Shown: positions 17,747 through 64,000 of the stretch, piece by piece
Position numbering within the stretch: the stretch's first letter is position 1
Layout of the letters: each line of letters opens with the position of its first letter
Virus record (IMG/VR): IMGVR_UViG_3300028028_000001
Span: 32,001 to 96,000 of that record
Length of the DNA stretch: 64,000 nucleotides
Reading direction: 5' to 3' (one strand)
Source: a virus
The notes under the pieces: generated by a model
What the model was told of the DNA's origin: nothing
The model's database searches: none
Seen by the model: only the letters and a program-made list of their open reading frames with translations
Translations under genes and position numbers: made by a program

Positions 17747-17777
17747 TCCCATCCCAACCCCACAAGGACAAAACACC

Positions 17778-19379: not shown

Positions 19380-19398
19380 TCGCGGCTTCGAGGTATAA

Positions 19399-19425
19399 GG
19401 GGATCGCTCTGCGGTCCCTTTTTTC
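19399..19425 (+). terminator. Rho-independent terminator after the capsid gene
   Basis: GGGATCGC-tct-GCGGTCCC (8 bp, one G-U pair) followed by TTTTTT. Confidence 0.65.
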
Positions 19426-19436
19426 TTGGAGTTTGC

Positions 19437-23484: not shown

Positions 23485-23496
23485 GGAGCGCTCTCC

Positions 23497-25290: not shown

Positions 25291-25299
25291 GGAGCTTCG

Positions 25300-26642: not shown

Positions 26643-28318
26643 CCGACGCCAAGATCAGAATCACCGGTGAAGCCGACGTTACCCGTATGCGGGCGATGAC
26701 GGATGAACTGCGCAAGTTGACGGATGGCGTCCGGAACTTCAATCGCGAATCGAAGACCAGCGGAGGCGGCGCGCCTGCTGGTGGCGATTGGGGCGCCTGG
26801 CAGGCGTATCACAAGGCGAATCCGATCCCCTGGGCGCCTGTGTCGGGGATGGCTGACGAGGAGGCCAGGGACCGCAGGACGGAGCGAGATGAAGAGCGGC
26901 GGGTTGCTCGCGAGGAGCGTCAACGATCGTCGAAGGAGAGCCGAGTCGGCGCTAAGGCGATGGCTGGCGCTCGGGCTGGCTACGGCTACGGTATGGCAGG
27001 CCTGGGGCTCCTGGGCCTCGGTGGTGGCGTTGGCGGCGTGATGTCCTGGCTCTTCCAGTCGGGCGAGGAGCACCTTCAGCAGAGCACGGCCATCAAGGTT
27101 CTTGAGCAGAGGTTTGGCTCACTGGCGACCGCAGGCGACCGGGTGAAGTCCTCGTTCTGGGGCGCCGGGCACTCTCTCGGGTTCGTGAATTCTCAAATGG
27201 CCGGGCTTATGGAAGCCCTTGGCGCGCAGACGAACACGGTATCGAAAGAGGATTGGCAGCAGTTCGGCGGGTTTGCAAAGCACACTGGGATGGACCCAGG
27301 CGCGGCAATGGGATTACTTGGGCATTTGGAACGGTTGACCCCAGGTGGTGTTACTGTGGTTGAGTTGGCCGGGCTCAAGCAGCAGGCCAACAAGCAGGGC
27401 ATGGGTAGGGGGAGGCTCCCGGAGTTTCTTCAAAACTTCATGACCCTTGCTCAGGAGCAGTTCCAGGACACCGGAAAGTTCGACTTCTCGCCCGCTATGA
27501 ACGTCTCGGCGATGCCTTCCTCGATGTTTTCGGGTGAGGCAGGGCGCGGCGAGATGGGTTTGAGTTTTGTCCAGAACATGAACCAGGCCATGACCGGATC
27601 GGACGCGGCGAAAACGTTTCTTCTTCGGTCGATGGGCTACGGTCGCGAAGGTGGCCCCGACTACATGTCTGCGAAGGAGCGGCTTGAAGCCGGTATCCAT
27701 GGGGAAGCCGGCGCTCAGAACCTGCTTGCGATGTCCGAGGGTATGCGCGGATGGGGCAAAGACCGAATCGCGCAGTCCATGGAAAAACTCAACCCGAACA
27801 TGAAGATGTGGCAGATTCGGGGATTCGTCGAAACTATTTCGGACGACAAGAAATATGCGGAGTTCAAGAGGGCGCTTTCCGGGGATCGTACCTTTTCCGA
27901 TTATGAGGAATACGTAGGCACCTTGAGTGAGGATCAGAGAAAAGCCTTTGAGGAAGAGGGCTATTTCGGTCTTGGCAAAAAGGCGCTTTCCGAAGGTGAA
28001 TCGATGGCGGTTACCAAGGAAGCGCAGAAAGCCGAGCAAGGCGACACGATGGCCGATGTTCTCCGATCGCTGAATCGAACGCTGGAAAACCTGCGCGATT
28101 GGATGCAGAGCGCCACCGGGCAGACTTTGGCGAAGTCGGTGGAGAAGATGACTGATGCTATCGAGGGTTGGTCAGAGAAGTTTGAGAAGTACGCAAAGGG
28201 TGGGGAAATAAAGGATGCGCTCAAATACTACCTGGAACCTGATGAAAAACCGCCACTGAAACCGGGTGAAAGGGGTTACGAGCGGCAGCAAGCAGAACGG
28301 GAACGGTACGGCCTATGA
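26639..28318 (+). CDS. Tape measure protein
   Basis: Follows the chaperone. Helical, with a Gly-rich hydrophobic segment 'GYGYGMAGLGLLGLGGGVGGVMSWLF'. Confidence 0.75.
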   Translation: MTDAKIRITGEADVTRMRAMTDELRKLTDGVRNFNRESKTSGGGAPAGGDWGAWQAYHKANPIPWAPVSGMADEEARDRRTERDEERRVAREERQRSSKESRVGAKAMAGARAGYGYGMAGLGLLGLGGGVGGVMSWLFQSGEEHLQQSTAIKVLEQRFGSLATAGDRVKSSFWGAGHSLGFVNSQMAGLMEALGAQTNTVSKEDWQQFGGFAKHTGMDPGAAMGLLGHLERLTPGGVTVVELAGLKQQANKQGMGRGRLPEFLQNFMTLAQEQFQDTGKFDFSPAMNVSAMPSSMFSGEAGRGEMGLSFVQNMNQAMTGSDAAKTFLLRSMGYGREGGPDYMSAKERLEAGIHGEAGAQNLLAMSEGMRGWGKDRIAQSMEKLNPNMKMWQIRGFVETISDDKKYAEFKRALSGDRTFSDYEEYVGTLSEDQRKAFEEEGYFGLGKKALSEGESMAVTKEAQKAEQGDTMADVLRSLNRTLENLRDWMQSATGQTLAKSVEKMTDAIEGWSEKFEKYAKGGEIKDALKYYLEPDEKPPLKPGERGYERQQAERERYGL

Positions 28319-29877
28319 CCACCATAATCCAGCAGCCCCAAAGAGGGCAACCAAGGGTCTATATCTGGGCAGGTGACACCGAAGCCGACAAGGTGGACGT
28401 TTCCGCCGACGTGATCGGGTTCGAGACATCCAAGAAACTCGGCTCCCCTACAGGCTCCTTCACGCTAACGCTCATGCCGAGCGTTGGATCCGCACAGACT
28501 CCCGCCGACATGCGGAGAATCACGAAACTCTATAGGGCGAACCTGACGAATCGCGTTGTTTCCATCGGCTGGAAGTACGACGGCGGAATCATGCTCGGGC
28601 TGGTTTCCAACGTCGCGGAAAGCCACAACTTCGGCGGGTCCTACACGCGCACGCTGACTATCACCGGGCAGGACTTTGGTAAGGTGCTTGTGAACGACAA
28701 CGTGGTTTCTGCGCTCATGAACCAACACGACGCGGGCTCTATCAAGTTCCTCGACAACGTGAAGGCGGCGCTCGGTCCAAGTACCTACGTTGGAGAGATG
28801 TACCTGAATGACCCACTTTCAAACGAACTCATCCCGACTCTGGCATACGGGCTGAGCGAGGTTATCGACTGGATTCTTGCAATATCGCCGTCCATGACGA
28901 TTCCGATCATGGGTAAAGTGTTCGGCGGGTCGGGCAAGGTGTCCGAGTACATTAACACCGCGAGTTACAGCTCCTTGGCCTGGAACGATGGCAAGATCTG
29001 GTCCACCGACGCGGCTACCTATTCGGGCAATATCTGGGGCTATATCCAGTCCATGATCGATCCAGACTTTTACGAAGTGGTGATCGATAGTTACCCACTT
29101 GCGACCAACCATACCGCGCTGAATGGACTTGCGCAGGTTTACCTCATGGTTCGCCCCAAACCCTTCGACGAGAAGATTCTTGAGTGGGCCTCGGTAGACG
29201 AGCAGACCGGGATGACGTGGGAAGACCTCAAGACCAAAACGAACGAGAGCAACCACGATATCGACCTTTCCGAGATGATCTCAGCGCAGTTCTCCTATGG
29301 GGATTCGGGCGCGATTTCGTCCTATGTGGTGACCTCGCCCTATACCGTGTTCGGCGCCTCCGACGGCTCGCTTCTTGGGATGCAATTCCCACTTCTGGAC
29401 ACCTATATCGCGAAAAGGTACGGTATCAAGTCCATGAAGTCCCGGCTTACCATGCTCGGACTCGACCCAAACGTGAAGTCCGATCCTGCGGCGATAACGG
29501 ACTTTATCCACCGCCTGTTCAACTGGTATCGGTATGCCCCGTTCTTTGAGAACGCCACGATAACGATCGCGGGTGGAACGCCGCTTGAGGGGGCGACTCC
29601 GACAAGCCGCGAGCTGATCCGGGTCGGCGATCCTGTTCGGCTTCCGTGGCGAAAGGCTCCCTATTCGGTCCCCTACATGTCGGAGGATGGCATGCGCTAC
29701 TACTGCACAGGCGTCTCGCAATCCTGGCGATCCTCACCTGGGCGCACGGGCATCCTGACGACTCGCCTGGACCTTACCCGAGGGCACAACGCTTCGATGA
29801 TCGCGGCTCTTGACGAGATGGTCCGCAAGGATGCGCCCGTCTCAAATCCCGCCCACTTCGCCGATTCCCTGGGGTAA
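28315..29877 (+). CDS. Baseplate hub / tail-associated protein (gpD/XkdQ-like position)
   Basis: ATGA overlap. Position after the tape measure. The resemblance is weak. Confidence 0.45.
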   Translation: MTTIIQQPQRGQPRVYIWAGDTEADKVDVSADVIGFETSKKLGSPTGSFTLTLMPSVGSAQTPADMRRITKLYRANLTNRVVSIGWKYDGGIMLGLVSNVAESHNFGGSYTRTLTITGQDFGKVLVNDNVVSALMNQHDAGSIKFLDNVKAALGPSTYVGEMYLNDPLSNELIPTLAYGLSEVIDWILAISPSMTIPIMGKVFGGSGKVSEYINTASYSSLAWNDGKIWSTDAATYSGNIWGYIQSMIDPDFYEVVIDSYPLATNHTALNGLAQVYLMVRPKPFDEKILEWASVDEQTGMTWEDLKTKTNESNHDIDLSEMISAQFSYGDSGAISSYVVTSPYTVFGASDGSLLGMQFPLLDTYIAKRYGIKSMKSRLTMLGLDPNVKSDPAAITDFIHRLFNWYRYAPFFENATITIAGGTPLEGATPTSRELIRVGDPVRLPWRKAPYSVPYMSEDGMRYYCTGVSQSWRSSPGRTGILTTRLDLTRGHNASMIAALDEMVRKDAPVSNPAHFADSLG

Positions 29878-30671: not shown

Positions 30672-32324
30672 ATGATCGGCGTTAACGGCGGGCATCAACT
30701 GAACATCCTGATCTTCGAGGTCGGCATGATTCAGACGATTCAGGCGCTCGGGATTGACCTCAAGGTGGTCTCGACCGTTTCTGTTCATCCGCTCCTTGTG
30801 GCTCCAACCTCGATCCGCTACACGGATGCAACCCGATCCTCGTTCAACCAGACTGCCGGTGGGACCGTGCTCACGCCCGGCGGGCGGGCTCTCCGAAACG
30901 TCACGCTTGAGGGCACGTTCGGGTCAGAATCGCGGGGGCTTGGCCCCTACATCGGCAACGGAGCGATCCGCTTTACCCGGTTTTACAAGGAAGTCGTCCG
31001 TATGGGTGAGGCGCTAACCCAAGACGAAGTGGACGATAACGTGGATTGGCTCAATGGAACGCCGTTTATCAAGCTGTTCCTGACGACCTACGATGATGCG
31101 AATACAAACTTCTTCATCAACTTCTATGACTTCTGGCACGATCGCGCTTTCCAGTGTTTGGTCCAGCGCTTTGACCACGATCGCGCGTTCATGAAGGGCG
31201 GCGCGGTCGGTCTGACGCACTACACGATGTCGCTTCAAGAAATCGGGCCTATTGTGGAAGGTGGGCTTGGGGAGTCCATCATTTCGCTTCTGATGGACGG
31301 GTTGACGCTCTGGAACGATATCAACAACGTGATCGATAGTTACGACCTCGCTACGATCATCGAGGCCTTCACCGGACCCGTTGCCATCGCTCTTTCGATG
31401 GCCGAGGGCACCCTGGAGGCCATCCGGAGCAACCTGGACGCGGCGACGGCTCTCTTCGGATCCTCCCTGCCGCCCGAGTCGGCACTTCCGTCGGCGCTTT
31501 CCTCGTTCGGTGCGGAGTGTGAATCGTTGGCATCCTCCATGGAGGCAATCTCTGGAACAGTGGAGGCCTCGGCGCCTGCTCCTGCAGCGCCTGCTACCAC
31601 GATGTCCTGGGATGACCCGCGAGCGCTCGACCTGGACGCCTGGGATACCGTGGCGTCCATGCGCGACCTGGCCGACGCTGCACGTTTCCAACTCTGCGCT
31701 GGCCTGTTCTTCGGGATGTCGCTCACCGACTATCAGAACTTCCTGGCTTCGTCCGGAGACGCATCCTGGCGGGGTCCGGAGTTTGGGGGCTCCATCGACT
31801 ACATTGTGGGCGAGTACGACACCGCAGGAGCCATCGAGGCGCGCTTCGGGGTAGACTGGCAACGCGTGCTTGCCTTCAATGGCCTGACGCCTCTGGAGGC
31901 CCTTACCGAGGGCACCAGGATCCGGATCCCGGTGCGCCGCTACTACGGAACCCAGGGACGGAATGCGATCCCCGTGCTCGACTCGCACGCTGGGGAAGCC
32001 GCCTGGGGTCGTGACGTGGCGATGGAGATCGGCGTTGATGCACTTGGGGATCTCCTGCTCGTCGAAGGGGAGGATTGCCTCACCCAGGGCGTGCAAGTCC
32101 TTTCCGAAGAACTGGCCACCAGTCTGATCAAGCCGCTACAGTCGATCCCCGAAAGCGTGCGGGGTTCCTGGCTTACCAAGAAGATTAGCGCCGCCATGAA
32201 GTCCGATCCCCGCATCTCCTCTGTGGTGTCGGTGACCACGGAAGAAAGTGATCGAGGTATAGCCCTCCGCGTGGTGGCCCAGGCCATCAACGGTTCTACG
32301 ATCCGCACCGGAGTCCGTGTCTAA
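30672..32324 (+). CDS. Baseplate protein with a LysM-like segment and a C-terminal gp25/gpW-like domain
   Basis: 'YIVGEYDTAGAIEARFGVDWQRVLAFNGL...GTRIRIPV' is LysM-like. C-terminal 'GDLLLVEGEDCLTQGV...DPRISSVVSVTTEE...' is gp25-like. Confidence 0.6.
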   Translation: MIGVNGGHQLNILIFEVGMIQTIQALGIDLKVVSTVSVHPLLVAPTSIRYTDATRSSFNQTAGGTVLTPGGRALRNVTLEGTFGSESRGLGPYIGNGAIRFTRFYKEVVRMGEALTQDEVDDNVDWLNGTPFIKLFLTTYDDANTNFFINFYDFWHDRAFQCLVQRFDHDRAFMKGGAVGLTHYTMSLQEIGPIVEGGLGESIISLLMDGLTLWNDINNVIDSYDLATIIEAFTGPVAIALSMAEGTLEAIRSNLDAATALFGSSLPPESALPSALSSFGAECESLASSMEAISGTVEASAPAPAAPATTMSWDDPRALDLDAWDTVASMRDLADAARFQLCAGLFFGMSLTDYQNFLASSGDASWRGPEFGGSIDYIVGEYDTAGAIEARFGVDWQRVLAFNGLTPLEALTEGTRIRIPVRRYYGTQGRNAIPVLDSHAGEAAWGRDVAMEIGVDALGDLLLVEGEDCLTQGVQVLSEELATSLIKPLQSIPESVRGSWLTKKISAAMKSDPRISSVVSVTTEESDRGIALRVVAQAINGSTIRTGVRV

Positions 32325-33670
32325 TGGCCACCCCCCGCTCACGAACAGACCTTGCCCGAGAATGGATCCGCCGACTCGTCGGCTATTCCCCCTCGGTCTC
32401 CTGGTTCGGGTCGGGTGGCGTGGCTCTGGCATTCTCGAAGGCCACCGGGGACCTTGCCGAGATCGCCCAGGACCTCTTCGTCTCGATGCGCAGGCGCTTG
32501 ACGCTCCTGGCATCTTCGGAATCGGACCTGGATGATATCGCCCAGGAACTCGGCACGGCGCGACTCACGGACGCACGGGCGCACGTTTACGCCGTGGTGG
32601 TTCCCTGGTCCGCTTCCGTTGTCGCGGTCGTGAGCGCGGGGAATGACTTCCTTCAAGTGGATGACGCCAGCAGGTTCCTCGCTCTTGACTCCCTTCGGAT
32701 CCGGGGATCCTCGGGAACGTCCGAGGCGCTTGTCGTGATCGCCATCGTCGGAAACGTGATCGAGTGCTTGCCTCTTACTGGTACCTACAACCCGCTGACG
32801 GAAGGTGTCTCGGTCCTGCTGCGGACTACGATCCCGGTTGGATCCACGATCGTCTCGCAGGCCGGTGTTTCATTTCAGACTCTGGCGACCGTGATTGCTG
32901 GTGACGCAAACCCACTTTTTGACGGTGAAGCCGCGTTCGTAGCGCTCGCCGACAAGGTGGATTGTGAATGCTCGGTCGCTGGTGCGGCGGGCAACATCGA
33001 GCCGGACTCCCTGGATTCCATCACCGGAGCCCCACGAATCGCCCGGGTCTACAACCCTGAAGGCGGCTATGGCGGCGACTCTGAACAGGACGCTCAACTC
33101 AAATACCGGGCCTCCCATCGTGCGACACTGGCGAATCAGGAGACCTCGGCGTGGTTGTTCGCCCTTGCCCGCGAGGGCAACCCGAACACTCTCCGGGCCA
33201 TCAAGGACACGACAACGGCGCTTTCCACATTGAAGTTTCGGCTTCTGAAAAGAACGGGAGCATCCTTTTCGGCTGCTGAACTCACCGAGTTGAAAGCCTA
33301 CATGGAGGCCCGCTTTCGGTCGCAGTATCAAGCCGATATTGGCAATGTGACCCTGACGGCCATCACAGTTGAGGCGCGGGTGAAGATGTCCTCGGGCGCC
33401 AGTTTCCAGACCTCCTGGCGCGCTGCTGCTTCGGGAATGGCGGCCTATCTCGACTATCGGGTCTGGGCCTTTGGGGGGACCGTTGACAACTCCGAGCTTC
33501 TTCAAATCCTCCAGAACACGGCGGGCATTGCGAGCGTTGAAACAGCATCTTTTCTTCCTGCTGTTCCGGTTCCAGTTTCCGCGCTGTCCCTCCCGGTACT
33601 GGTCTACTTCGCGATCGAGGATCAAGACACGGGTGAGACGTTCGGCGGGAATCTTGCGGTGAGTTTCTGA
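32324..33670 (+). CDS. Baseplate J-like protein
   Basis: 'AGAAGNIEPDSLDSITGAPRIARVYNPEGGYGGDSEQDAQLKYR' is a typical gpJ block. Confidence 0.75.
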   Translation: MATPRSRTDLAREWIRRLVGYSPSVSWFGSGGVALAFSKATGDLAEIAQDLFVSMRRRLTLLASSESDLDDIAQELGTARLTDARAHVYAVVVPWSASVVAVVSAGNDFLQVDDASRFLALDSLRIRGSSGTSEALVVIAIVGNVIECLPLTGTYNPLTEGVSVLLRTTIPVGSTIVSQAGVSFQTLATVIAGDANPLFDGEAAFVALADKVDCECSVAGAAGNIEPDSLDSITGAPRIARVYNPEGGYGGDSEQDAQLKYRASHRATLANQETSAWLFALAREGNPNTLRAIKDTTTALSTLKFRLLKRTGASFSAAELTELKAYMEARFRSQYQADIGNVTLTAITVEARVKMSSGASFQTSWRAAASGMAAYLDYRVWAFGGTVDNSELLQILQNTAGIASVETASFLPAVPVPVSALSLPVLVYFAIEDQDTGETFGGNLAVSF

Positions 33671-44202: not shown

Positions 44203-44274
44203 TGGACCCGGTGGGAGTCGAACCCACGACATCCTGCTTGCAAGGCAGGCGCTCTCCCGCTGAGCTACGGGCCC
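44203..44274 (-). tRNA. tRNA-Ala (anticodon UGC)
   Basis: Hand-folded cloverleaf: GGGCCCG/CGGGTCC acceptor with G3:U70, anticodon loop CUUGCAA, T-loop TTCGACT, discriminator A. CCA is not encoded. Confidence 0.9.
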
Positions 44275-44282
44275 GGTGGTGG

Positions 44283-44546
44283 TCAGATCCCCGGGTGGGG
44301 ACCCGTGCGCCAGTCGAAGCCGCCGAGCACGGAGTCGAACCACTCGCCCGGGTCGGCTCCCCAGCCGTCTTCATCGTCTTCGTCGCCCGTGTCGTCGCCG
44401 TCGCCCGTGTCCTCGGTTTCGCCGGTGTCAGGATCGGGTTCGATCGGGGAATCCCATCCCGGCGGGTGGAATTCGTCCGGGATGACGCGGATCGTGGGGC
44501 CGTCGAGCGGACTGGCGGCGAGAAGGGCGAGAAGTAGGAATCTCAT
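44283..44546 (-). CDS. Secreted acidic protein (signal peptide)
   Basis: 'MRFLLLALLAASPLDG' followed by a D/E/G/T-rich region. ATGA overlap upstream. Confidence 0.55.
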   Translation of the reverse strand: MRFLLLALLAASPLDGPTIRVIPDEFHPPGWDSPIEPDPDTGETEDTGDGDDTGDEDDEDGWGADPGEWFDSVLGGFDWRTGPHPGI

Positions 44547-44704
44547 GGTTTCTCCTGTTTTGGTGGTTCAGTCTTGTGGGTAGTAACATGTTGAGCAGAA
44601 AGGGCAAGGCCTCGCGCGATTCGGGCGCGGCGGTAGAAGAATCGGAAGAGGTCAGCGAAAAGCCAGCCGAGAAGGAAACCGGCGATGAGAAGGGCGTAGT
44701 TCAT
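44543..44704 (-). CDS. Small single-pass membrane protein (53 aa)
   Basis: 'MNYALLIAGFLLGWLFADLF'. ATGA overlap with the radical-SAM stop. The RBS lies inside the 23-bp repeat. Confidence 0.5.
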   Translation of the reverse strand: MNYALLIAGFLLGWLFADLFRFFYRRARIARGLALSAQHVTTHKTEPPKQEKP

Positions 44705-45546
44705 CTCTCGATCTCCTGATTGGGTTCGCCGTCCAGAGGGCCGGCCAGTTTCGCGATCAATGCCGGTCGGAACCATCGCCGTTGAAAAGCGCGCCATTCT
44801 GGTTTGAATTGCCCGCCGTCATCTCGCCAGAGCATCGCGGCGGGAAAGATCCCAGTCTCCAGGACCGCTCGAAGCCGCGTTTCTGCTTTCTCGAAGGTGT
44901 CGCTCGGAAACCCGATCAGGACGTAGCAGCGGACCCGATGGCCCGCAAAGTGCTGTCCGGCTTCCTTGAGCACCTCCGCTGCCCGCTTGACGTGATCCCA
45001 ATCGTCAGGGGTGTCGTAGGCCAAGAAGATGCTTTCTGGGTGTAGTTTGACGAGAGCAGCGGCAACGTCGCGCGTTATCCGTTTCGGTTCGAGCCCGCCT
45101 GTGAATTGCGGACGTTTCGGTTGCCGAGCGAGCATGGCGAATACGTCGGTAATGTGCCCATCGGAGCAAGCTAATAGGTTGTCGTCGAGCACGTTCCAAC
45201 CATCATGAATCGAGAGTTCTCGGATTGTGCCTTCGCGCTTCGGTACAGAGCAGAACCAGCAGCGATTTGGGCACCCGCGAGACGTGATCGTGTAGCCGTG
45301 TCGGAGGTACTGGCCGGACTCGAAGTCACCTCCGGGCAGGCCAAGAGCAGGGCCGCCTACCTGGACAGGCGCAATCCTGGCCCACGAATCCGCAAGCATC
45401 CGAGCGACCGGGAGATCCCAGGTAAACGCCACCGATACCCTAACCTCTGTGATTCCGTCTGGAATGAACAGCGGGGGATCTCCGATGAACGTCAGCGGAT
45501 CGGTTGGCGTTGCTTGGGTTCGCCGTGGGAAAACGCGCGCAATCAT
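44701..45546 (-). CDS. Radical SAM protein
   Basis: 'SRGCPNRCWFCSV' is a CX3CX2C motif. Start set to ATG 45546 (ATGA overlap, AGGAGA RBS). Confidence 0.85.
   Translation of the reverse strand: MIARVFPRRTQATPTDPLTFIGDPPLFIPDGITEVRVSVAFTWDLPVARMLADSWARIAPVQVGGPALGLPGGDFESGQYLRHGYTITSRGCPNRCWFCSVPKREGTIRELSIHDGWNVLDDNLLACSDGHITDVFAMLARQPKRPQFTGGLEPKRITRDVAAALVKLHPESIFLAYDTPDDWDHVKRAAEVLKEAGQHFAGHRVRCYVLIGFPSDTFEKAETRLRAVLETGIFPAAMLWRDDGGQFKPEWRAFQRRWFRPALIAKLAGPLDGEPNQEIER
44711..44733 (-). repeat. 23-bp direct repeat, copy 1
   Basis: ATCTCCTGATTGGGTTCGCCGTC (+ strand), identical to 45553-45575. Encodes 'DGEPNQEI' and provides the AGGAGA RBS of the next gene. Confidence 0.95.
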
Positions 45547-46505
45547 GGAGCTATCTCCTGATTGGGTTCGCCGTCGCCAGGAAACTCCCGCCATTCCCGA
45601 CCGTCGATAATTGCCCCGGTGTTGTGCTTTCCGAGGCGAGAAAGAATAGTCACCGGGAAAGCGTCTTCATCGCGGGCCCGCATGAAGTCGATACCCATGT
45701 TCAGAACGCGCCCCTTCTTGTCCATGCAGGCATCCGTCCTGGAAATATGGGTACTGGCCTTGCTGACCCAACGCTGATAGTTCCACATTTCATCGAATAC
45801 CGGCATCCCGTTACACATATCCACCATTCCGGGCCCGTATTCCCCCCACTGTTTAAAAAAATACGGAACCCCAGCGGCCAAACACTGATCGCGCAACCCA
45901 CGAACCCAATCCGGATGGGTAGGCCGCGCGTTCGGGCCCGACTCACCGCCAGCGATAACCCAATGGATCCCGTCCAGATTCAACTGGATAGGCCCAAGAA
46001 GAGGCTCGCAGGACAGGAAGCGAACGGGCGCTTTGACCTGTCGAAGGAACGGATACCGCTCATCGAAGCGCTGTTGATTCTCGGCAGTGACCCCGGCCCA
46101 GGCGTTGATCGGCCACCAGTAGGACCGATTCCAGGCCAGCATCGCCTCGGGTCGCTTCGTCAGGAGTTGCCAGATCAGCCCGCGCTTGGTTTCCTCGATG
46201 AGTTCCCAGAGTCGTCGCCGGGCCATGACGAGTTCGGGAAGTTCCTCGAACACGTCGCACGTCGAGCCGCAAAAGACCTTGACCCGCGTGCCTTCCTTCT
46301 CGGCCTTTCGACTCCAGGCGATCGGCTGCTTCCAGTAGGAGTCGCTGGCCATCACCCGAGGATGATCGCCCCATTCCGCGTGGCGTCTCATGCCGGGCGG
46401 TAGGGTTTCGGCGTAGCAGTTTTTGCAGGCCTCGGAGACCTTTCGGCATCCTGACCATGGATTGAAGGTATTTCCGGTCCACGCTATGTTGGAGTTTTCG
46501 CTCAT
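45543..46505 (-). CDS. DUF5131 (phage Gp37/Gp68) family protein
   Basis: 'NIAWTGNTFNPWSGCRKVSEACKNCYAE' is the family's N-terminal signature. 320 aa. Confidence 0.85.
   Translation of the reverse strand: MSENSNIAWTGNTFNPWSGCRKVSEACKNCYAETLPPGMRRHAEWGDHPRVMASDSYWKQPIAWSRKAEKEGTRVKVFCGSTCDVFEELPELVMARRRLWELIEETKRGLIWQLLTKRPEAMLAWNRSYWWPINAWAGVTAENQQRFDERYPFLRQVKAPVRFLSCEPLLGPIQLNLDGIHWVIAGGESGPNARPTHPDWVRGLRDQCLAAGVPYFFKQWGEYGPGMVDMCNGMPVFDEMWNYQRWVSKASTHISRTDACMDKKGRVLNMGIDFMRARDEDAFPVTILSRLGKHNTGAIIDGREWREFPGDGEPNQEIAP
45553..45575 (-). repeat. 23-bp direct repeat, copy 2
   Basis: Perfect match to 44711-44733, 842 nt apart. Together they bracket the radical-SAM gene. Confidence 0.95.
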
Positions 46506-47508: not shown

Positions 47509-47909
47509 CTCTTCCTCGCTTCCCAAGCCGCAAGAGTCGCGGGAACGTCGAATCGCGCGCCATACGGGTACCGGTAGCCCGTCGCGCGTTGCCATGGCTG
47601 CTCATCGGAATTCCCGACTTCGCGCAGGTAGACCCGAGCCGGCGTTACCCGTGTGATAACATACTCATCCTTTGGCGCATGAATCCAGACCGGACGGGGA
47701 AGAGCCTGATCTTTCTCGGTTTGCTCCAGGCGCGCAAGTTTCGCTTGAGCCTGCGGAATCAAGCCGTCCCGGGACCATCCCATCAGGATGGAGTCGCGCC
47801 GTTCCAGGGCCTCGATGCTCATTTGATGCGCAGCGATGTTTGCCGCAATGTCAACCCGCTCCTGTTGGAGTCGGGCTATGGTGGCACGGGCCTCTTCGAT
47901 CGGGGTCAT
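47505..47909 (-). CDS. Hypothetical protein
   Basis: ATGA overlaps at both ends. Coiled-coil N-terminus. Confidence 0.6.
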   Translation of the reverse strand: MTPIEEARATIARLQQERVDIAANIAAHQMSIEALERRDSILMGWSRDGLIPQAQAKLARLEQTEKDQALPRPVWIHAPKDEYVITRVTPARVYLREVGNSDEQPWQRATGYRYPYGARFDVPATLAAWEARKR

Positions 47910-48205
47910 TTGCCCACCTCCTGAACCCGCCAGACTTCGGCGGACGGGGTCATCTCCGCGATCTCGGTCCCCGGAAAGTTGACGCAGGCGATCCGGGTGT
48001 AGGAAACGCCGTACAAGGCCGCCAGCGCGTCCCTACGGCTCTTTGAGTTCGGGGAGCGCGTACCACGCTCCCACTCGCTGACGGTGTGAGGCGGGAGGGA
48101 GAGGGCCGTCTCTACGGCCTTCTGGGTCAGACCTGCTTCCCTGCGCAGTTGCCGCAGTCCGTAGCCGTGGCATTTTTGGAGCCAGCGATCGATGGGGTCG
48201 GTCAT
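47906..48205 (-). CDS. XRE-family helix-turn-helix transcriptional regulator
   Basis: 'LRQLRREAGLTQKAVETALSLPPHTVSEWERGTRSPN'. Confidence 0.8.
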   Translation of the reverse strand: MTDPIDRWLQKCHGYGLRQLRREAGLTQKAVETALSLPPHTVSEWERGTRSPNSKSRRDALAALYGVSYTRIACVNFPGTEIAEMTPSAEVWRVQEVGK

Positions 48206-48549
48206 GGCTTCCTCACTGCCAGTCTCAACTCATCCCGCTGGATGGTCAAGGACAGGATTTTCTCGCGGAGTCGGCCCTGCTCGACAAGGAACGACTCCAC
48301 CACGCGAGCCCAGCTCTCGGAGTACGGATAGACGGAGTAGTTCACGCCGGGTTGGACTCGTTCTATAAGCGAGTGTTTCCGATCCGTTAAGCCGATGATA
48401 TCGGCCTCCACTTCAATGTAGTTCGGATGCCGTTCCATCCGGGTGATTTCCCCGATCCACCATCCTTCTGGATGGTTGACCGAGTCCACTTCGATGATGC
48501 ACTTCTGCCCTACCTTGGGCGTTTCTTCGGATTTCCATTGACCGGACAT
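48202..48549 (-). CDS. Hypothetical protein (115 aa)
   Basis: ATG 48549 lies 2 nt after the upstream TAG. The longer 244-aa ORF N-terminus is an alternate frame of the L12-like gene. Confidence 0.55.
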   Translation of the reverse strand: MSGQWKSEETPKVGQKCIIEVDSVNHPEGWWIGEITRMERHPNYIEVEADIIGLTDRKHSLIERVQPGVNYSVYPYSESWARVVESFLVEQGRLREKILSLTIQRDELRLAVRKP

Positions 48550-48551
48550 TT

Positions 48552-48929
48552 CTACTCCTTCACGATCGCACCGGATTCCCGGAGCATCCGGGCGGCGGCG
48601 GCGAGGGTGACCGTGGAACCGCTCCGATCGCATCGCAGTTCCGACTGCCCGATGGTGGTTGGCGCGGCTTCGACGAGGTTCTTGGCCTCCATGAGACCGA
48701 TGCCGGTCAACTCGCGGATCGCCTTGATGACGTTGATCTTGTTCTCGCCCCATGAGACGAGGAGGATCGCGTCGCCGGGAATGGGCACGTCCATCTTGGA
48801 GAGAGTCGCGGTCTTCTCTGCGATGGCGCCGCGGAGTATCTCCGCTCGCGTCAACGCATCGCGGCCGATCCGCTCCAGTTCCTCCGCTCTCGCGCGGAGT
48901 ACTTCGATTTCCTGTTTCAATCGTTCCAT
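48552..48929 (-). CDS. Protein with a coiled-coil N-terminus and a ribosomal protein L7/L12 C-terminal domain
   Basis: 'NKINVIKAIRELTGIGLMEAKNLVEAAP...LRESGAIVKE' aligns by eye with E. coli bL12 '[28 protein letters not shown]...LEEAGAEVEVK'. Confidence 0.8.
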   Translation of the reverse strand: MERLKQEIEVLRARAEELERIGRDALTRAEILRGAIAEKTATLSKMDVPIPGDAILLVSWGENKINVIKAIRELTGIGLMEAKNLVEAAPTTIGQSELRCDRSGSTVTLAAAARMLRESGAIVKE

Positions 48930-49000
48930 GTTTCACTTCCTTTCCTCTCTGTCATACCCGGTTAGCGAGAGTCTGTCAACGCGATTCCGTGGAATACTTC

Positions 49001-49249
49001 TCACCAGGGGATAGAACCACGATACCAAGCCACTTTCCCGCGAGTCGGCACGCCGAGGATCAAGGTGAGAGGATCGCCACGGGACCATGGCCAGGCCACG
49101 ACGCAAGCGGCGGATCCCTTCGGCAAGGTCCCGAGATACCGGCTTACATCGGGTAGAATCATCTCCCCGGAGTAGAGGAGGATCGCCACGTCTTCGGCTC
49201 GGCAAGGCGATAACTGCGCCTCGCCGACTTTGGCGCGGTCGCTAATCAC
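49001..49249 (-). CDS. Hypothetical protein
   Basis: ATGA overlap with the helicase stop. Confidence 0.5.
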   Translation of the reverse strand: MISDRAKVGEAQLSPCRAEDVAILLYSGEMILPDVSRYLGTLPKGSAACVVAWPWSRGDPLTLILGVPTRGKVAWYRGSIPW

Positions 49250-51228
49250 CGACGAAACCCCACAATCTGCGAAATAGTTGTTTCTCGCCGTTCTATGGCT
49301 CGGCAGTCCACCGCGCGGAGACCAGGATGGCTCGTTAGCCCTGTCGGCTTCCCTTCCCTAAAGGTTTTCGTCCATACCTTCGGCTTTTTCCAGGCGTCGG
49401 GAGCGCTCTTTCGGCACGTCTGACAGAACCAGAATAGCCGATCGGAGAGGACGTAAGGCGAGCCGCAAGAGCAGGTATCGTGCCGCCAGTCCTGCACGCG
49501 GGCACGGGATGAGGCGGCCTCGATCAAGATGTCCACCTCGCCCTTCGTCATAGCCGAGAAGTCACGTTTCAACCCGAGACCGGAAAGGCGCTTGATATCC
49601 GCCGGAGTAGCCGGTTTCCCCTTCCAGTCTTCGGCCGTCGCACCGCGCACTTTCCTATCCAAAAGCCACTTCTGCCCGAATCGGATAGCCTCGCCCTTGT
49701 CGGTGAACGTGCCGATCTTTGTAGGATCCTCCTTGTTCAGGATGGACCAGACTTCAAACCGATCGCATATATGCACGGTCCATCGGTCCTTTTCCGAGGA
49801 ACCGTATGGAGTACCAGCAAAGAGACCGGACGGGGCGGCCCGATCCGACAAGCCGGAAGCCGTCCATGTCTTCTGGTACTCGTAAAAGCCGATATCTTCC
49901 GTCGCTTTCTGGCCACCGAGGAGGAAGATTTCGTAAGACTTGACGCCTGATATCCGGGGCTCGATCGTCAGAAGTTCTGGCGTATCAAGCAGGGTTTGCT
50001 TCGGGCGGTCAAGTTCGGAAAGGGGGTGTTTTGAACGGGCGGTCTTCCACTGGACGCTCGCGATCCGCTCTTCGATGGCCTCGATACATCCGATACCCTG
50101 GTCTTCATGGTGGCGACGAACACATAGATCGCCGGGTTTCCACTCCCTTTTCTCGGTTGGCGAGGTGCGGGAGAGGTCAACCAGATCGGAGAGGTCAAGA
50201 GGGCAGCCGTTGTCCACGAGGTCAATGAAAAGGGCGTCGGGCTTACCTTTCCGCAATGAACGTCCGAGCATCTGGACGAAGACGATCCGGGATTGAGTCG
50301 GCCTGGCCTTGAGGATCGCCGCGCAGTTCGGGGCGTCGAATCCCTCCCGGATGAGGTCCACGGAAACGACCACGGGGATAGCGCCAACCTTGAAGCCATC
50401 TACTACCGCGCGACGGTCTTTCATCGCTCCCCAGGCCGCCCGGGCCGGAATACCGGCCTCCTGGAAGGCCTCGGTAAGGTGCTGCGCGTGCTCGACCGTG
50501 ACCGCAAAGACGAGGGTCGGGCGAGCTCCGCAACGGGAAAGGTACTGCTCGACCACCAGCCGGTTACGGTCTGGCGTGTCGATGGCCTTGGCGAGGTCCA
50601 CCGCCTGCCAGTCGTCGCCGATCGTGCGAACCGAGGAGAGATCGATGGAGGTCTTGACCCGGAAGGATTGGAGTTGGCAGAGGTCGCCGTTCTCGATCGC
50701 TTCACGGATCCCGTACTCGTAGACTACCGCCTGGAACACGTCGCCCAGGCCAGACGTTCCGCCTTTCGGGGCGCTGCGGAAGGGGGTCGCGGTCATGCCC
50801 ACCGTCTTACATGCGAAGTGGTCAATAATCCTTTTTCGGGACGGCGCTGTGTAGTGGTGCACCTCGTCCGGCAAGAGAAGATCGATTTTCGGCGCGGTCG
50901 CCAGTCGCTTGGGGGTCAGGGATTGCGCGGACGCCACAATGATCGGGCCGGTCCAATCGTCCAGTTTCGCCATTACAATGGAGCATTTTCCGATCCGGGC
51001 GATCCGGTTGGCAAGGTCGGTTACCAGTTCCTCCCGCTCCGTCGTGATTAGGACGCGCTTTCCTTTGTCGGCGGCGGCTTGGGCGATGCCGGAGATTAGA
51101 TTCCCTTTTCCCGTTCCAGTTGCGGCGCTGATAATGATCCGGTCCCAGGTTTTGAGTCCGGATCGGGCGGCTTGGAAGGCCTCTTCCTGCCACTTTCTTG
51201 GGGGTTGGTTCGGGGGGTGGGGGAACAT
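49246..51228 (-). CDS. SF2 DEAD/DEAH-box DNA helicase with a C-terminal Zn-ribbon extension
   Basis: 'AATGTGKG' (Walker A), 'LLLPDEVHHY', 'MTATPFR', 'QMLGRSLR', and a C-terminal 'CSCGS...CQTC'. Confidence 0.9.
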   Translation of the reverse strand: MFPHPPNQPPRKWQEEAFQAARSGLKTWDRIIISAATGTGKGNLISGIAQAAADKGKRVLITTEREELVTDLANRIARIGKCSIVMAKLDDWTGPIIVASAQSLTPKRLATAPKIDLLLPDEVHHYTAPSRKRIIDHFACKTVGMTATPFRSAPKGGTSGLGDVFQAVVYEYGIREAIENGDLCQLQSFRVKTSIDLSSVRTIGDDWQAVDLAKAIDTPDRNRLVVEQYLSRCGARPTLVFAVTVEHAQHLTEAFQEAGIPARAAWGAMKDRRAVVDGFKVGAIPVVVSVDLIREGFDAPNCAAILKARPTQSRIVFVQMLGRSLRKGKPDALFIDLVDNGCPLDLSDLVDLSRTSPTEKREWKPGDLCVRRHHEDQGIGCIEAIEERIASVQWKTARSKHPLSELDRPKQTLLDTPELLTIEPRISGVKSYEIFLLGGQKATEDIGFYEYQKTWTASGLSDRAAPSGLFAGTPYGSSEKDRWTVHICDRFEVWSILNKEDPTKIGTFTDKGEAIRFGQKWLLDRKVRGATAEDWKGKPATPADIKRLSGLGLKRDFSAMTKGEVDILIEAASSRARVQDWRHDTCSCGSPYVLSDRLFWFCQTCRKSAPDAWKKPKVWTKTFREGKPTGLTSHPGLRAVDCRAIERRETTISQIVGFRR

Positions 51229-51696: not shown

Positions 51697-52077
51697 TCAC
51701 GGTTTGGGAATGAAGAAAGGATCATCCCATGGCGGATAGGAAACGACAGGAATCCCCTTCGCCCGCGCAAACGCGACTTCCGTTTCCAACCCGGCGGATA
51801 CCTCCATCGGCGCGCATCTCCAAACGGCATCGCAGACTGCCACAAGCGCAAGGTCCCGAGAGATGTAAAAGCCCTGTGGATCCTTGGGATTCGTGAGTCC
51901 CGCTTCGTGCATCAGGTGATGGTGGATCCATGAGACCACCACGAACCCGCTATTTGTTGCGAGCGCGCAGAAGGCCAGGTATCGGCGGATATTGCGCTCC
52001 TTGTTGCCCCATTCCGGGGAGCCGTCGCCTTGTAGGGGGTGGGCTATGTAGATTAGGGGGCCGGGGTGGGGGTTCAT
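51697..52077 (-). CDS. Nucleoside 2-deoxyribosyltransferase-like protein (DUF1937/DUF4406-like)
   Basis: 'LIYIAHPLQGD...NIRRYLAFCA...CDAVWRCAPMEVSAGLETEVAFARAKGIPVV'. ATGA overlap at 52077. Confidence 0.65.
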   Translation of the reverse strand: MNPHPGPLIYIAHPLQGDGSPEWGNKERNIRRYLAFCALATNSGFVVVSWIHHHLMHEAGLTNPKDPQGFYISRDLALVAVCDAVWRCAPMEVSAGLETEVAFARAKGIPVVSYPPWDDPFFIPKP

Positions 52078-53102
52078 CTTGCGTGCTCCCATTCAATCCA
52101 TTGTTTCAGCACGAGCCCGACAGCATGAGCGACGGGAGGCACTACGGCGTTCCCGAGCGCACAGATTTTCGCCGCGTGGACTCTGGCGGGGGTCCATCCG
52201 GACGGCTTGACGCTTCCGTCCATCCAATCGGGAATCCCATGAACGCCTCGCACCAGGGGATCGAAAGGCGATGCCCCGGACCACGGAGCCGCCTCATCTC
52301 CCGCCCGACACTCGCGGTCCCCTGCTCCGTCCCCGCTTTCCAGTCTGCCGACATGAGCGTCGGTAGCAGTTCGGATCGCGGAGTCGAGCCAATCCGCAAA
52401 GCGGGGAGCAGGCTCATGTGATGCAGATCCCCTCCCGCCCCGCATCGTTCCCCATCGCTCGCTCGAAGCGTCGGCAGCAGCCCGCGCTGCGCCTTCGTGG
52501 TTCGCCCTTCCTTGGGGCGTCGGGATCCGCCCATCTCCGATGCCGTCAGGGTCGGTAGCAGTTCCGTCCGCAGGTCGCGCCCACGTTGCGGCGCAGCGGG
52601 CCTGATTCCCCCGGTCCCCATCGCTGAGCACAGAGTCGGCAAGAGCGAGAACAAACCCTCTTGACCGCTCGTGTCTGGCTCCCACGTCACAGGCCCGCAC
52701 GCGCAGGACAGGACTGGTCCGATAGCCGAGATCTGCAAGTCCGCCCCGCACCACGGGCACCCACGTCTTCTTGGCATTCCAGACGTTCTCGACGACGACA
52801 GCGCGAGGTCTGGCTTCTCGGATGACTCGAAGCATCTCGAACCAGAGACCCGATCGGGCTCCGTCGAAGCCGGCTTTTCGGCCAGCGGTGGACAAGTCCT
52901 GGCAAGGGAATCCGCCGCAAATAACATCTGCTGAGACATCTCGAAGCTCCTTGATGTCCGGGTAAATCGGACAGTTCCAATGCGCTCGAAGGACCGAGCG
53001 ACAAAATGCATCGGCCTCGCATTGCCAGGCGACGGGGCCGAATCCCGCGAGTTCAAGGCCCATTTCGAGCCCGCCTATGCCGCTGAACAGGGAGCCGATC
53101 AT
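52074..53102 (-). CDS. DNA (cytosine-5)-methyltransferase
   Basis: 'FSGIGGLEMG' (motif I), 'GGFPCQDLS' (IV), 'VVVENV' (VI), 'ALGNAVVPPVA' (X). Confidence 0.9.
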   Translation of the reverse strand: MIGSLFSGIGGLEMGLELAGFGPVAWQCEADAFCRSVLRAHWNCPIYPDIKELRDVSADVICGGFPCQDLSTAGRKAGFDGARSGLWFEMLRVIREARPRAVVVENVWNAKKTWVPVVRGGLADLGYRTSPVLRVRACDVGARHERSRGFVLALADSVLSDGDRGNQARCAATWARPADGTATDPDGIGDGRIPTPQGRANHEGAARAAADASSERWGTMRGGRGSASHEPAPRFADWLDSAIRTATDAHVGRLESGDGAGDRECRAGDEAAPWSGASPFDPLVRGVHGIPDWMDGSVKPSGWTPARVHAAKICALGNAVVPPVAHAVGLVLKQWIEWEHAR

Positions 53103-53401
53103 CCCGTCATCCTCCCCAAAACCAAACCCGCCAGCACAAGAGCCTCACGCGAAACCTCGTCCAATCCGTCCCGACGTGCATAGACGGCCAAGTCAAGCGC
53201 CTCCTGGAGTCCGTCCTTGAGCCCGCGACCGTCGCCGTAGGGAAGCGGCTTACCGTGCTTCTCGATGCCCATGAGCCGGCGTTCGATGCAGACATCTCGA
53301 AGCAAACCTTGGGGCATTTCGTCGATGATGTCCTGCCAAACGTCGCCTTCCCCTTGGTTGGAGCCTACGGGGAGGGTGGTTACGAGGTCACGCACGTTCA
53401 T
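53099..53401 (-). CDS. Hypothetical protein, possibly a MazG-like NTP pyrophosphohydrolase fold
   Basis: 'GIEKHGKPLP...LQEALDLAVYARR' weakly resembles all-alpha NTP-PPase blocks. Confidence 0.35.
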   Translation of the reverse strand: MNVRDLVTTLPVGSNQGEGDVWQDIIDEMPQGLLRDVCIERRLMGIEKHGKPLPYGDGRGLKDGLQEALDLAVYARRDGLDEVSREALVLAGLVLGRMTG

Positions 53402-53969
53402 TGAACACCTCCGGACAAGCCTTGACCAGTTCAGCGCGAACGAGAACCATCAAGGCGCGCATCTGCGGGTGAGTCGCCGGGGCCTCGCGGAGGGACAGGA
53501 CATGGAGCCATTCCCGGAAGTTGCACGTCATCACGATCTCGGTCTTGAGACCGTTTGGCAGGAAGTACCGGGCTTGCTGGGGAGTCCTACCGCGCGCGAG
53601 GCACCTGGAATAGTGGCGTTCGATGGCTGCGAGGAGAATCCGATCGGCGTCATCAAGGTCGAAGTCCACGGGGGCGATAAAACGGATCGAGTCGCGGTAG
53701 TTGCAGTATCGCGTTGACTCCTGCGAGTAGGCCGCGATCCTGTGCCTCACCAGTTCATGCGTCACGCCCCGATCGGTAACGATCCGGATCGTGGCGCTTG
53801 CGTGCTCCAACACGGACAGGTGCCCGCGCCGCATGAGCATGGCGATGAAAGGGGCGGTTGACTCCGGGTTTCCGGTACTTTGGTAGCAGGTGCGCCCGGC
53901 GGACTCGATGAGCCGAGCCGATTCGGGAGTCACGGAAAGAAGTTCGGCAGACTGATTGACTACTTGCAT
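53388..53969 (-). CDS. thyX: Flavin-dependent thymidylate synthase ThyX
   Basis: ThyX signature 'LVRHRIAAYSQESTRY' and 'SVLEHASATIRI'. Confidence 0.9.
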   Translation of the reverse strand: MQVVNQSAELLSVTPESARLIESAGRTCYQSTGNPESTAPFIAMLMRRGHLSVLEHASATIRIVTDRGVTHELVRHRIAAYSQESTRYCNYRDSIRFIAPVDFDLDDADRILLAAIERHYSRCLARGRTPQQARYFLPNGLKTEIVMTCNFREWLHVLSLREAPATHPQMRALMVLVRAELVKACPEVFNERA

Positions 53970-60644: not shown

Positions 60645-61142
60645 TCAACTTCCTTTCGTGGACATCGTAACACGTCGCCTCAAAAGTTCAAGCCAGCCGT
60701 CTTCCGAATCCATGCGAATTGTGGTCAGGGAAGGGCGAAACGTGGAGAGTGCCTGAACGTCTCGCCATGGCAGGATGTACCGATCCTCTCCGAGGAGTAC
60801 GGCCAGGATTCCGATCCCGCCTTGCTGGTCGTAGGAGTCGAGGAAGGCCCTCTGGTGAGGCTCGACAACGGACAGCGATAGAGTCTCTTCCTTTGTCGCC
60901 TTGCACTCCGCACCGATGGCCAGGCCTCGGGATAGGAGGATGAAGTCCGAGGGGCCTATCCCTTCCGTATGACACAGCCAAAGATTTCCAACCTGGCGGA
61001 TCTTCTTCATCTCTTCGGGCGTCCTGGCCACCACAAGGAGACCCGATTGAGCGAGCGCTCGGCATCGGGTCTCGAAGTCGTCTTGCCAGGCCTCGCCTAA
61101 CTTCTGGGCTTCGTAGCCGGCGATTTTCTGGAGAGGATTCAT
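60645..61142 (-). CDS. PD-(D/E)xK nuclease, Holliday-junction-resolvase-like (RecU/Hjc type)
   Basis: 'GPSDFILLSRG..AIGAECKAT' fits a D...E-x-K motif. ATGA overlap at 61142. Confidence 0.6.
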   Translation of the reverse strand: MNPLQKIAGYEAQKLGEAWQDDFETRCRALAQSGLLVVARTPEEMKKIRQVGNLWLCHTEGIGPSDFILLSRGLAIGAECKATKEETLSLSVVEPHQRAFLDSYDQQGGIGILAVLLGEDRYILPWRDVQALSTFRPSLTTIRMDSEDGWLELLRRRVTMSTKGS

Positions 61143-61381
61143 TTTGCCTTTTCGTCTTCGGTTGGCATGGCAGGGACATCGAAAAAGGGACCGTCCGGGT
61201 TGTCGCCGCATCGCCCTTGTCTGTTCATCCTCCGATACCAGAGAGCGCACCGGGATCCGATGCAGTCGATTCCGGGGGCCTTGGAAGGGTCGGGGAAAAC
61301 AGGGACCGCGTAGGGAATTCCGCTATTCGGTACAATCTCAAGAAGGATCGCCCTCGCCTGCATGAGTCGGTGACAGATCAT
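61139..61381 (-). CDS. Hypothetical protein
   Basis: ATGA overlaps at both ends. Confidence 0.5.
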   Translation of the reverse strand: MICHRLMQARAILLEIVPNSGIPYAVPVFPDPSKAPGIDCIGSRCALWYRRMNRQGRCGDNPDGPFFDVPAMPTEDEKAK

Positions 61382-63374: not shown

Positions 63375-64000
63375 CTATTCCCCCCTCCATTCCATAGCCA
63401 ATTCGCCATCAGAGGGCCGGGCGGACAGGATGATCACGCCCTTCTCGACCGCGAGCCGGGCGAGTTCGGCGACACTGGAGGGCTGCAACTCCGCGAGCCA
63501 CTTTCCATCGATCGGGATGATTCGGCCGGGGAACGCGGCCAACCCAAGATGGAGCATGACGCTCATCCGCTGCCCGTCCGACAAGCCGCGAGGATCGGCG
63601 AAGAGTTTGACCTTGCCATCAACGCTGGCATAGAGCCGACCGTCCACGATGGTCAAGCCAGCCGGGATCCCCTTCGCGGCGAGAATGGCCCCGATTTTCG
63701 ACGAAACGGCCGCCGCCTGGACTCGGAGCCGTTTTCCGTCCGCCTGCGCGTTTTCGGAGGCTTCCTTGGCCAACCCTTGCGCCTCCTTGAGGGTCCGGAG
63801 CGTTTCGGCGTGCTCCTTTCGCTTGGTCTGGATGTCCTTGGCCCGCTTGACCTGCTCGTAGTGGGCCAGGGCGTCCGCGAGCACCTGTTCCGCCTTGTCG
63901 GCGTCGGCGATCGTGGGGAGGTCGGGGATCCCTGCGTAGCTCTTCTGGGCTTCGTCCCATCGGGCGGCTTCGGTGACTCGATCGGATCGCTGCTTGCGGA
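63375..64000 (-). CDS. SMC/Rad50/SbcC-like ATPase, C-terminal part (5' end outside the window)
   Basis: 'GLSDGQRMSVMLHLGLA' is an ABC signature-like motif, followed by 'GRIIPIDGKWLAEL' (Walker B-like). I checked that the frame stays open to nt 64000. Confidence 0.65.
   Translation of the reverse strand, partial: RKQRSDRVTEAARWDEAQKSYAGIPDLPTIADADKAEQVLADALAHYEQVKRAKDIQTKRKEHAETLRTLKEAQGLAKEASENAQADGKRLRVQAAAVSSKIGAILAAKGIPAGLTIVDGRLYASVDGKVKLFADPRGLSDGQRMSVMLHLGLAAFPGRIIPIDGKWLAELQPSSVAELARLAVEKGVIILSARPSDGELAMEWRGE

Follow-up and report, generated by a model that had tools for sequence, protein, structure and literature searches.

The gene at positions 48552–48929 (minus strand) of a 64,000-nucleotide (nt) stretch of viral DNA (IMG/VR record IMGVR_UViG_3300028028_000001, positions 32,001 to 96,000; hereafter the window) encodes a 125-amino-acid (aa) protein whose residues 54–125 form a genuine and intact C-terminal domain (CTD) of ribosomal protein bL12. 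In place of the ribosomal N-terminal domain (NTD) and hinge, the protein has an amphipathic helix, probably a coiled coil, and a short linker. It is a rare example of a published class, the virus-encoded bL12-CTD proteins, and has the features of that class: it is encoded in a viral genome, carries the Pfam domain PF00542 without the ribosomal NTD and appears to be under purifying selection. The parts of the gene are as follows.

48552–48929, minus strand: open reading frame (ORF) of 125 aa, consisting of coiled coil, linker and bL12 CTD
48936–48942, minus strand: Shine–Dalgarno-like AAGGAAG, 6 nt before the ATG (reading of the sequence)
48792–48929, minus strand: amphipathic helix, probable coiled coil, residues 1–46 (AlphaFold2, heptads, hhalign)
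48771–48791, minus strand: linker DVPIPGD, residues 47–53, standing in for the Ala/Pro-rich hinge (alignments)
48555–48770, minus strand: complete bL12 CTD, residues 54–125 (Pfam, PDB sequence matches, AlphaFold2, Foldseek)
48612–48632, minus strand: insertion CDRSGST, residues 100–106, between strand 2 and the last helix (alignments)

Both sequence and structure support the CTD, which a first-pass annotation made from the letters alone had placed at residues ~55–125. Pfam PF00542 (Ribosomal_L12 CTD) matched residues 55–95 with 55.1 bits (E 9.6e-15; gathering cut-off 25.9 bits). The match ends at profile position 43 of 67 because of the seven-residue insertion at residues 100–106; in the homologs P0003 and P0258 (see below), it extends to positions 64–65. 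The insertion is relative to cellular bL12 and is missing from P0003. In a sequence search of the PDB, the best 17 matches were all bL12 or its mitochondrial homolog, and the ORF was the sole match to a local hidden Markov model (HMM) of the CTD across the six frames of the window. The AlphaFold2 model (alignment of 20 sequences; mean predicted local distance difference test score, pLDDT, 85.8) shows a β-α-α-β-α-β fold, with strands at residues 54–59, 91–94 and 122–124 and helices at 64–75, 79–87 and 109–118. Structural alignment to bL12, the check suggested along with the first-pass annotation, gave the same answer: in a Foldseek comparison with the PDB, bL12 CTDs ranked first, with template-modeling (TM) scores of 0.75–0.87 to solved bL12 CTDs (target-normalized 0.77 for 1ctf and 0.87 for 8phj_W). 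The N-end-rule adaptor ClpS, which belongs to the same structural superfamily, has a small α/β fold similar to this CTD. A ClpS-like adaptor was considered and rejected, as Pfam gave no ClpS match, Foldseek gave E 0.1–1 with TM ~0.5 and sequence similarity was absent.

The N-terminal part is of a different kind. Residues 2–44 form one uninterrupted helix in the AlphaFold2 model, and the best heptad register has a hydrophobic residue or Ala at 12 of the 14 a/d positions (M1, L4, I8, L11, A15, L18, G22, A25, A29, L32, I36, K39, L43 and M46), against at most 8 in all other registers. With the isolated N terminus as query, all that Pfam returned was coiled-coil families below threshold, the crescentin rod and the CT398 coiled coil among them. 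The bL12 NTD (PF16320) had no Pfam match in the protein at E ≤ 1, and an NTD HMM found nothing in the six-frame translation of the 64-kilobase (kb) window. That the helix might be a diverged bL12 NTD was also tried and rejected, the probability given by hhalign against a profile of NTD plus hinge being 0.1%. The hinge of cellular bL12 is long, flexible and of low complexity, rich in Ala, Gly and Pro, whereas the linker found here is short (~9 residues, KMDVPIPGD) and nearly invariant: M46, D47, V48, P49, I50, P51 and D53 are identical across three close homologs. As an observation in its own right, the conservation of MDVPIPxD (residues 46–53; positions 48771–48794) is surprisingly strong for a plain spacer, and the "IP" recurs in P0258.

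The hhalign probability, the 12 of 14 heptad positions and the short linker bear out the earlier proposal that a coiled coil has replaced the N-terminal domain and hinge, and that the protein could not take the usual seat on the ribosomal stalk follows from the missing NTD. The protein resembles cellular bL12 (rplL) in CTD fold and sequence family, in overall length and in helices 4/5, and like bL12 it probably oligomerizes via its N terminus. Unlike cellular bL12, it has no PF16320 NTD, no flexible hinge and no rplJ–rplL operon around its gene, and by these three criteria of N-terminal domain, hinge and operon context it is not a stalk protein.

The gene itself is well defined. The ORF runs from an ATG over 125 codons to a TAG at 48552–48554, and public gene calls for the phage in a second, independent assembly (Logan SRR8449812, locus L007) include the identical 125-aa product, the successive calls being 82, 125, 115, 99 (helix-turn-helix, HTH) and 134 aa. 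A greedy caller chose instead a 244-aa ORF in another frame (48202–48936, minus strand); this was rejected, its N-terminal half being an Arg-rich shadow frame, and the true genes within 48202–48929 are the 125-aa and 115-aa ORFs. NCBI files the 96.7-kb contig as a Thermoleophilia metagenome-assembled genome (MAG) and names the identical protein (P0001) "MAG: ribosomal protein L7/L12 [Thermoleophilia bacterium]". Upstream of the gene, we found no Rfam element and no L10-leader-like RNA, the sole Rfam match being the tRNA discussed below; around the gene, a sigma-70-like promoter was absent and no terminator rose above chance.

Relatives are few. We ran two word-index searches over 5.8 billion proteins and a profile search over 1.84 billion cluster representatives, the latter considered for the best 150 of 7,737 matches, and scanned IMG/VR, 185,579 species genomes and the JGI metagenomes. 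Among the matches listed, only three proteins were related: P0002 (77% identity; locus L001, which is the same as L008 and near-identical to L009), P0003 (70–73% identity by alignment or BLASTP; extra N-terminal extension; locus L002) and the distant P0258 (133 aa; locus L003). The last of these carries the marks of the family's CTD, namely W60, an insertion and TLAxAAxxLR in the last helix, and has a different N terminus that is not a coiled coil. In P0003 (L002, 681–1208), a start codon is lacking where Met1 would be, and the coiled coil follows a 56-residue extension; judging from this sequence, the architecture of the family varies, with an extra domain, coiled coil and CTD in one protein. 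Three candidate loci, L010–L012, were rejected as ordinary bL12 with an N-terminal domain, and a tblastn search of annotated phages returned only true rplL or host contamination. As L001, L003 and L005 each have other genes in common with the window, the family as a whole belongs to a single loose group of uncultured phages.

A further candidate, L004 (IMG/VR UViG_3300037067_001739, 134 kb), was rejected as a different viral CTD fusion. In its protein at 7734–8240, the bL12 CTD is internal and the C terminus bears a Cys motif, CDTCELRFRCFTER. Two upstream ORFs have similar motifs, CDSCDDRFKCFTERKG near the C terminus of one and CATCLTRFECYTKD in the middle of the other, and the region 6738–8240 looks, from its sequence, like a small paralogous family with a CTD inserted in one member.

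The ratio of nonsynonymous to synonymous substitution rates (dN/dS) between the gene and its L001 homolog was 0.26 at a dS of 0.56 (Nei–Gojobori, one pairwise comparison), with 0.21 for codons 1–53 and 0.29 for the CTD; by the measure of this single pair, both halves of the protein are under purifying selection. The very small size of the family would suit a decaying, functionless remnant of a captured host rplL. However, dN/dS of 0.21–0.29 in both halves at dS ~0.56 contradicts such decay, the ORF is unbroken and preceded by a good Shine–Dalgarno sequence, the N-terminal helix and linker are highly conserved among homologs with 70–77% identity, and the family has conserved marks of its own in W60 and TLAxAAxxLR. 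We regard a remnant as highly improbable.

Phage-encoded bL12 CTDs without a ribosome anchor and with varied fusions were described in 2019 by Mizuno et al. (PMC6375957). The phage Ribosomal_L12 domains retain the residues that contact uL11, EF-G and EF-Tu (PMC6375957). In some phages, the domain makes up a whole small protein (98 aa in Ralstonia phage RSB3 and 106 aa in Dinoroseobacter phage DFL12phi1), and in the more frequent case it forms part of a longer polypeptide, of up to 724 aa, at a position that varies (418 aa in Salmonella phage FSL SP-058/076 and 724 aa in Erwinia phage Ea9-2; PMC6375957). The genes lie in widely differing contexts, implying repeated independent acquisition, and are under purifying selection (PMC6375957). 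The 125-aa protein is like them in being phage encoded, in having the CTD only, with contact residues kept and an unrelated partner, and in its variable context and purifying selection; its weak PHROG matches, phrog_26927 and the 418-position profile phrog_26483, provide a link to the same proteins. It differs in its partner, an N-terminal heptad-repeat helix of ~45 residues that gives a protein of the size of bL12, in its identity to cellular bL12 CTDs (~50–60% over the aligned part, versus the 30–40% reported for the phages of the survey) and in its host, which, unlike theirs, is probably not proteobacterial. A heptad helix followed by a single CTD is not described in the available part of Mizuno et al. 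2019. The statement in the first-pass annotation that virus-encoded bL12 had been reported was thus correct (PMC6375957), whereas its view of the truncated and fused architecture as something special did not hold: the survey has both whole-protein and embedded phage forms, and in BFVD the description "bL12 C-terminal domain-containing" is given to several phage proteins, from crAss-like phages, Ralstonia phage RSJ5 and Klebsiella phage KpCHEMY26.

The protein could also be built into the ribosome, its N-terminal helix docking on the C-terminal helix of uL10 or on the NTDs of host bL12 to give a hybrid stalk. Consistent with this, the bL12-domain protein of FSL SP-076 was found by mass spectrometry, with a single peptide, in salt-washed 70S ribosomes (PMC6375957), and the helix studied here is amphipathic and conserved, with a dN/dS of 0.21. 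On the other hand, neither sequence nor profile comparison relates the N terminus to the bL12 NTD, and it forms one long helix instead of the helical hairpin of that domain. Stalk function needs a long flexible hinge, and the linker is short (~9 residues) and conserved. In the published case, moreover, ribosomes could not be affinity-purified via a tagged phage bL12 protein (PMC6375957). Incorporation into a hybrid stalk therefore seems improbable to us.

The surface with which bL12 engages translation factors can be traced in the protein residue by residue. In bL12, V66–V68, K70, L80 and E82 touch the G′ subdomain of EF-G (PMC5887453). Using the numbering of chain 1rqu_A, in which a residue of mature Escherichia coli bL12 has the number of its counterpart plus one, the equivalents are I65, N66, V67, K69, L79 and E81, and K65, I69, R73 and K84 of E. 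coli correspond to K64, I68, R72 and K83. At the EF-G contact positions, each of the four family members has the same residue or a conservative substitution, and the other four positions are likewise retained throughout the family; the position of E. coli K81 has M in the 125-aa protein and K or R in its homologs. We propose that the coiled coil would dimerize the protein, or pair it with another helical protein, and that the dimer would show two CTD heads in the manner of the native bL12 dimer, free in the cytoplasm. The heads would bind the usual partners of the CTD, that is, EF-G, EF-Tu, IF2 and RF3, or uL11 at the stalk base, and the protein would modulate host translation in early infection rather than act as a structural stalk subunit. 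There is precedent in the phage bL12 proteins that keep the EF-G and EF-Tu contacts, one of which, from FSL SP-076, was present in purified 70S ribosomes (PMC6375957). We hold this combination of helix dimerization, off-stalk binding of CTD partners and translation modulation tentatively, at slightly less than an even chance, and the more general idea of translation hijacking, raised in the first-pass annotation, is a plausible hypothesis.

Several observations weigh against this model. The published attempt to purify ribosomes via a tagged phage protein was unsuccessful (PMC6375957), and the gene is surrounded by genes for replication and not for translation, its neighbors being different in L001. 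The protein departs from cellular bL12 in being near-neutral, in the seven-residue insertion, in a remodeled region from strand 2 to the last helix and in the family-specific W60. Its isoelectric point is 6.4, compared with 4.6 for the acidic bL12 of E. coli (the E. coli sequence used agrees in its CTD part with PDB alignments). K95, E96, K100 and A103, which are 95–98% conserved in a word-index-biased sample of cellular bL12, are not retained by the family, the insertion falls in the same place and the last helix of the protein is Ala-rich instead of charged. Affinities between the CTD and translation factors are weak and EF-Tu is extremely abundant, so that simple titration of EF-Tu is stoichiometrically unlikely; it is more likely that the protein acts on a specific target or as a recruiter than that it sequesters factors in bulk. 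Finally, the same helix 4/5 positions are 67–93% conserved in 370 CTDs of non-ribosomal tandem-CTD proteins. As the contact residues are common to these, a role in translation is not singled out by them, and the helix 4/5 motif may be a hallmark of the CTD generally, compatible with GTPase binding and no proof of it.

The tandem-CTD proteins came to light in the profile search, where 147 of the 148 best-scoring cluster representatives (P0121–P0268) had 2–8 tandem bL12 CTDs and 5 of the 148 had the ribosomal NTD. P0121, for example, has 6 CTDs together with LRV/HEAT repeats, and P0127 and P0138 are other tandem cases; a literature search found no study of a large non-ribosomal tandem-CTD protein family. 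The 125-aa protein is like these bacterial proteins in that its CTD is detached from the ribosomal NTD and keeps the helix 4/5 motif. They differ in valency: the tandem proteins have 2–8 CTDs, often with other repeat domains, and the phage protein has a single CTD and could be multivalent only via its coiled coil. The wide reuse of the domain off the ribosome speaks for another explanation, in which the CTD would be a generic interaction module working outside translation, in phage replication, recombination or transcription, and the coiled coil would tether it to a phage protein. The position of the gene fits this, between a helicase and an HTH regulator in the window and between a PD-(D/E)XK-like protein and an SbcC-like ATPase in L001. 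Free mitochondrial bL12 is known to bind and activate the phage-type RNA polymerase POLRMT, which provides a parallel for such a role. Yet the factor-binding face has strictly conserved its exposed charged residues, there is no partner to point to and the only translationally coupled neighbor, a 115-aa gene, is not kept beside the gene in relatives. We consider a role outside translation unlikely, albeit a good deal less so than a hybrid stalk.

A more specific scenario starts from the Foldseek result. The best target-normalized match (TM 0.87), 8phj_W, is a bL12 CTD in the cA4-bound complex of Cami1 with the 70S ribosome; Cami1 is a type III CRISPR CARF-RelE nuclease. By analogy, soluble CTD heads might compete with ribosomal bL12 for effectors captured by the stalk, Cami1 among them, and so serve as an anti-defense decoy that shields phage translation, and the accessory behavior of the gene in the early region is typical of anti-defense genes. 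The argument is one of pure analogy, however: 8phj_W is simply E. coli bL12 and the match is unspecific, Cami1 is not demonstrated in the host of this phage and no known anti-defense family matched the protein, PADLOC and the anti-defense libraries lying outside the searches. We rate anti-defense by such competition as quite unlikely. We also give only a slim chance to a decoy acting in trans, in which the protein, dimeric and soluble, would imitate the bL12 head and intercept Cami1-type (CARF-RelE) nucleases or a specific translational GTPase.

The surroundings of the gene are those of a phage. Tail and baseplate proteins and phage-type replication genes confirm the phage origin assumed at first reading, and by gene content the window is a tailed-phage genome, related to another IMG/VR contig (L006). 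Features used in the description are listed here.

32324–33670, plus strand: Baseplate_J, baseplate wedge (phrog_6; Pfam, PHROG)
28315–29877, plus strand: tail protein with lysin activity (phrog_1015; PHROG)
21096–21869, plus strand: virion structural protein (phrog_1004; PHROG)
60645–61250, early module: RecU, upstream of the sliding clamp and at the same end of the module
49246–51228, minus strand: SF2 helicase (ResIII/Helicase_C), upstream of the 125-aa gene
49001–49249: 82-aa ORF between the SF2 helicase and the 125-aa gene
48202–48549, minus strand: 115-aa gene, downstream of and translationally coupled to the 125-aa gene, without family match
47906–48205, minus strand: HTH_31/HTH_3 (Cro/CI-type) regulator, two genes downstream of the 125-aa gene

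A LysM protein is found among the structural genes of the plus strand; we identified no gene for a capsid, portal or terminase protein in the window, where most proteins have no family. The minus strand has a long, densely packed replication or early module, which contains, around our gene, helicases and phage-type replication genes and comprises the sliding clamp, ThyX, a C5 methylase, the SF2 helicase, the 125-aa gene, the 115-aa gene, the HTH_31 regulator, DUF5131, a radical-SAM protein and tRNA-Ala. The HTH regulator was earlier described as adjacent to the gene; the 115-aa gene intervenes, and the regulator is no evidence for translation hijacking. The tRNA noted in the same block is indeed present, as tRNA-Ala, though it lies 4.3 kb away and has no bearing on function. 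The nearest phage helicases are those of Leptospira phage LE1 and of Mycobacterium and Nocardia phages (~33% identity), and the host is probably not a proteobacterium, given the Thermoleophilia bin and the actinobacteriophage origin of the nearest helicases.

The coupling to the 115-aa gene is tight: the TAG of the 125-aa ORF is followed by 2 nt and then the ATG of the next gene, whose ribosome-binding site GAAGGAG (48555–48561) sits in the last codons of the former. The model of the 115-aa protein is a Tudor/SH3-like β-barrel with a 36-residue C-terminal helix (residues 78–113; pLDDT 80.7, the five models disagreeing, with 45–81), and it had no significant match in the PDB; a single homolog (P0375) was found in the 5.8 billion proteins. 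In this predicted structure, the long helix could in principle pair with the coiled coil of the 125-aa protein. We considered the two genes as a conserved pair and rejected this, as L001 has another gene downstream and in L005 the upstream gene ends differently: L005 is syntenic with positions 48543–47141 of the window, and the gene before its homolog of the 115-aa gene ends in ...RAILALAKTLKES, which is not the terminus of a bL12 CTD. In L001, the gene (81% nucleotide identity) is flanked by a PD-(D/E)XK-like protein on one side and, on the other, by a 63-aa ORF followed by an SbcC-like ATPase, the homolog of which is 15 kb from the gene in the window (63402–63998 and 48552–48929, compared with L001 1–3911). 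The comparison indicates shuffling of gene order in the early region. As its neighbors differ in L001 and L005, the gene behaves as an accessory, movable gene of that region.

Other features of the window were recorded along the way. The tRNA-Ala(UGC), the radical-SAM protein (44701–45594) and DUF5131/phage Gp37-Gp68 (45543–46505) lie together on the minus strand at 44203–46505, and ThyX (53388–53969) and the C5 cytosine methylase (52074–53102) are located 7–8 kb from this group in the same module; together these genes may form a DNA-modification module. On the plus strand, a 1900-aa protein (9875–15577) matches the phage DNA helicase phrog_62 in its C-terminal third, and its 1300 N-terminal residues have no match. 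Three long ORFs of the minus strand (17706–20207, 23134–25491 and 25540–26079) have G+C contents of 0.80–0.83 at the first codon position and are probably shadow ORFs of plus-strand genes.

As it stands, the 125-aa protein, encoded by an uncultured phage, is a well-documented yet ordinary representative of a known class. It is particular in its partner, a heptad-repeat helix that would plausibly dimerize the head and give the protein the size and valency of bL12 with no anchor. If the proposed mechanism is true, this would be the most compact natural "anchorless" bL12 head and a convenient reagent for the function of the many phage-encoded bL12 domains, a question since the survey of 2019. Were the decoy to prove true, it would be the first anti-defense or translation-reprogramming factor made from a ribosomal protein domain. 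The side observation on tandem CTDs is possibly the weightier one: hundreds of clusters of anchorless proteins keep the factor-binding residues, which suggests, as far as sequences can tell, that the bL12 CTD has a broad and unstudied life off the ribosome.

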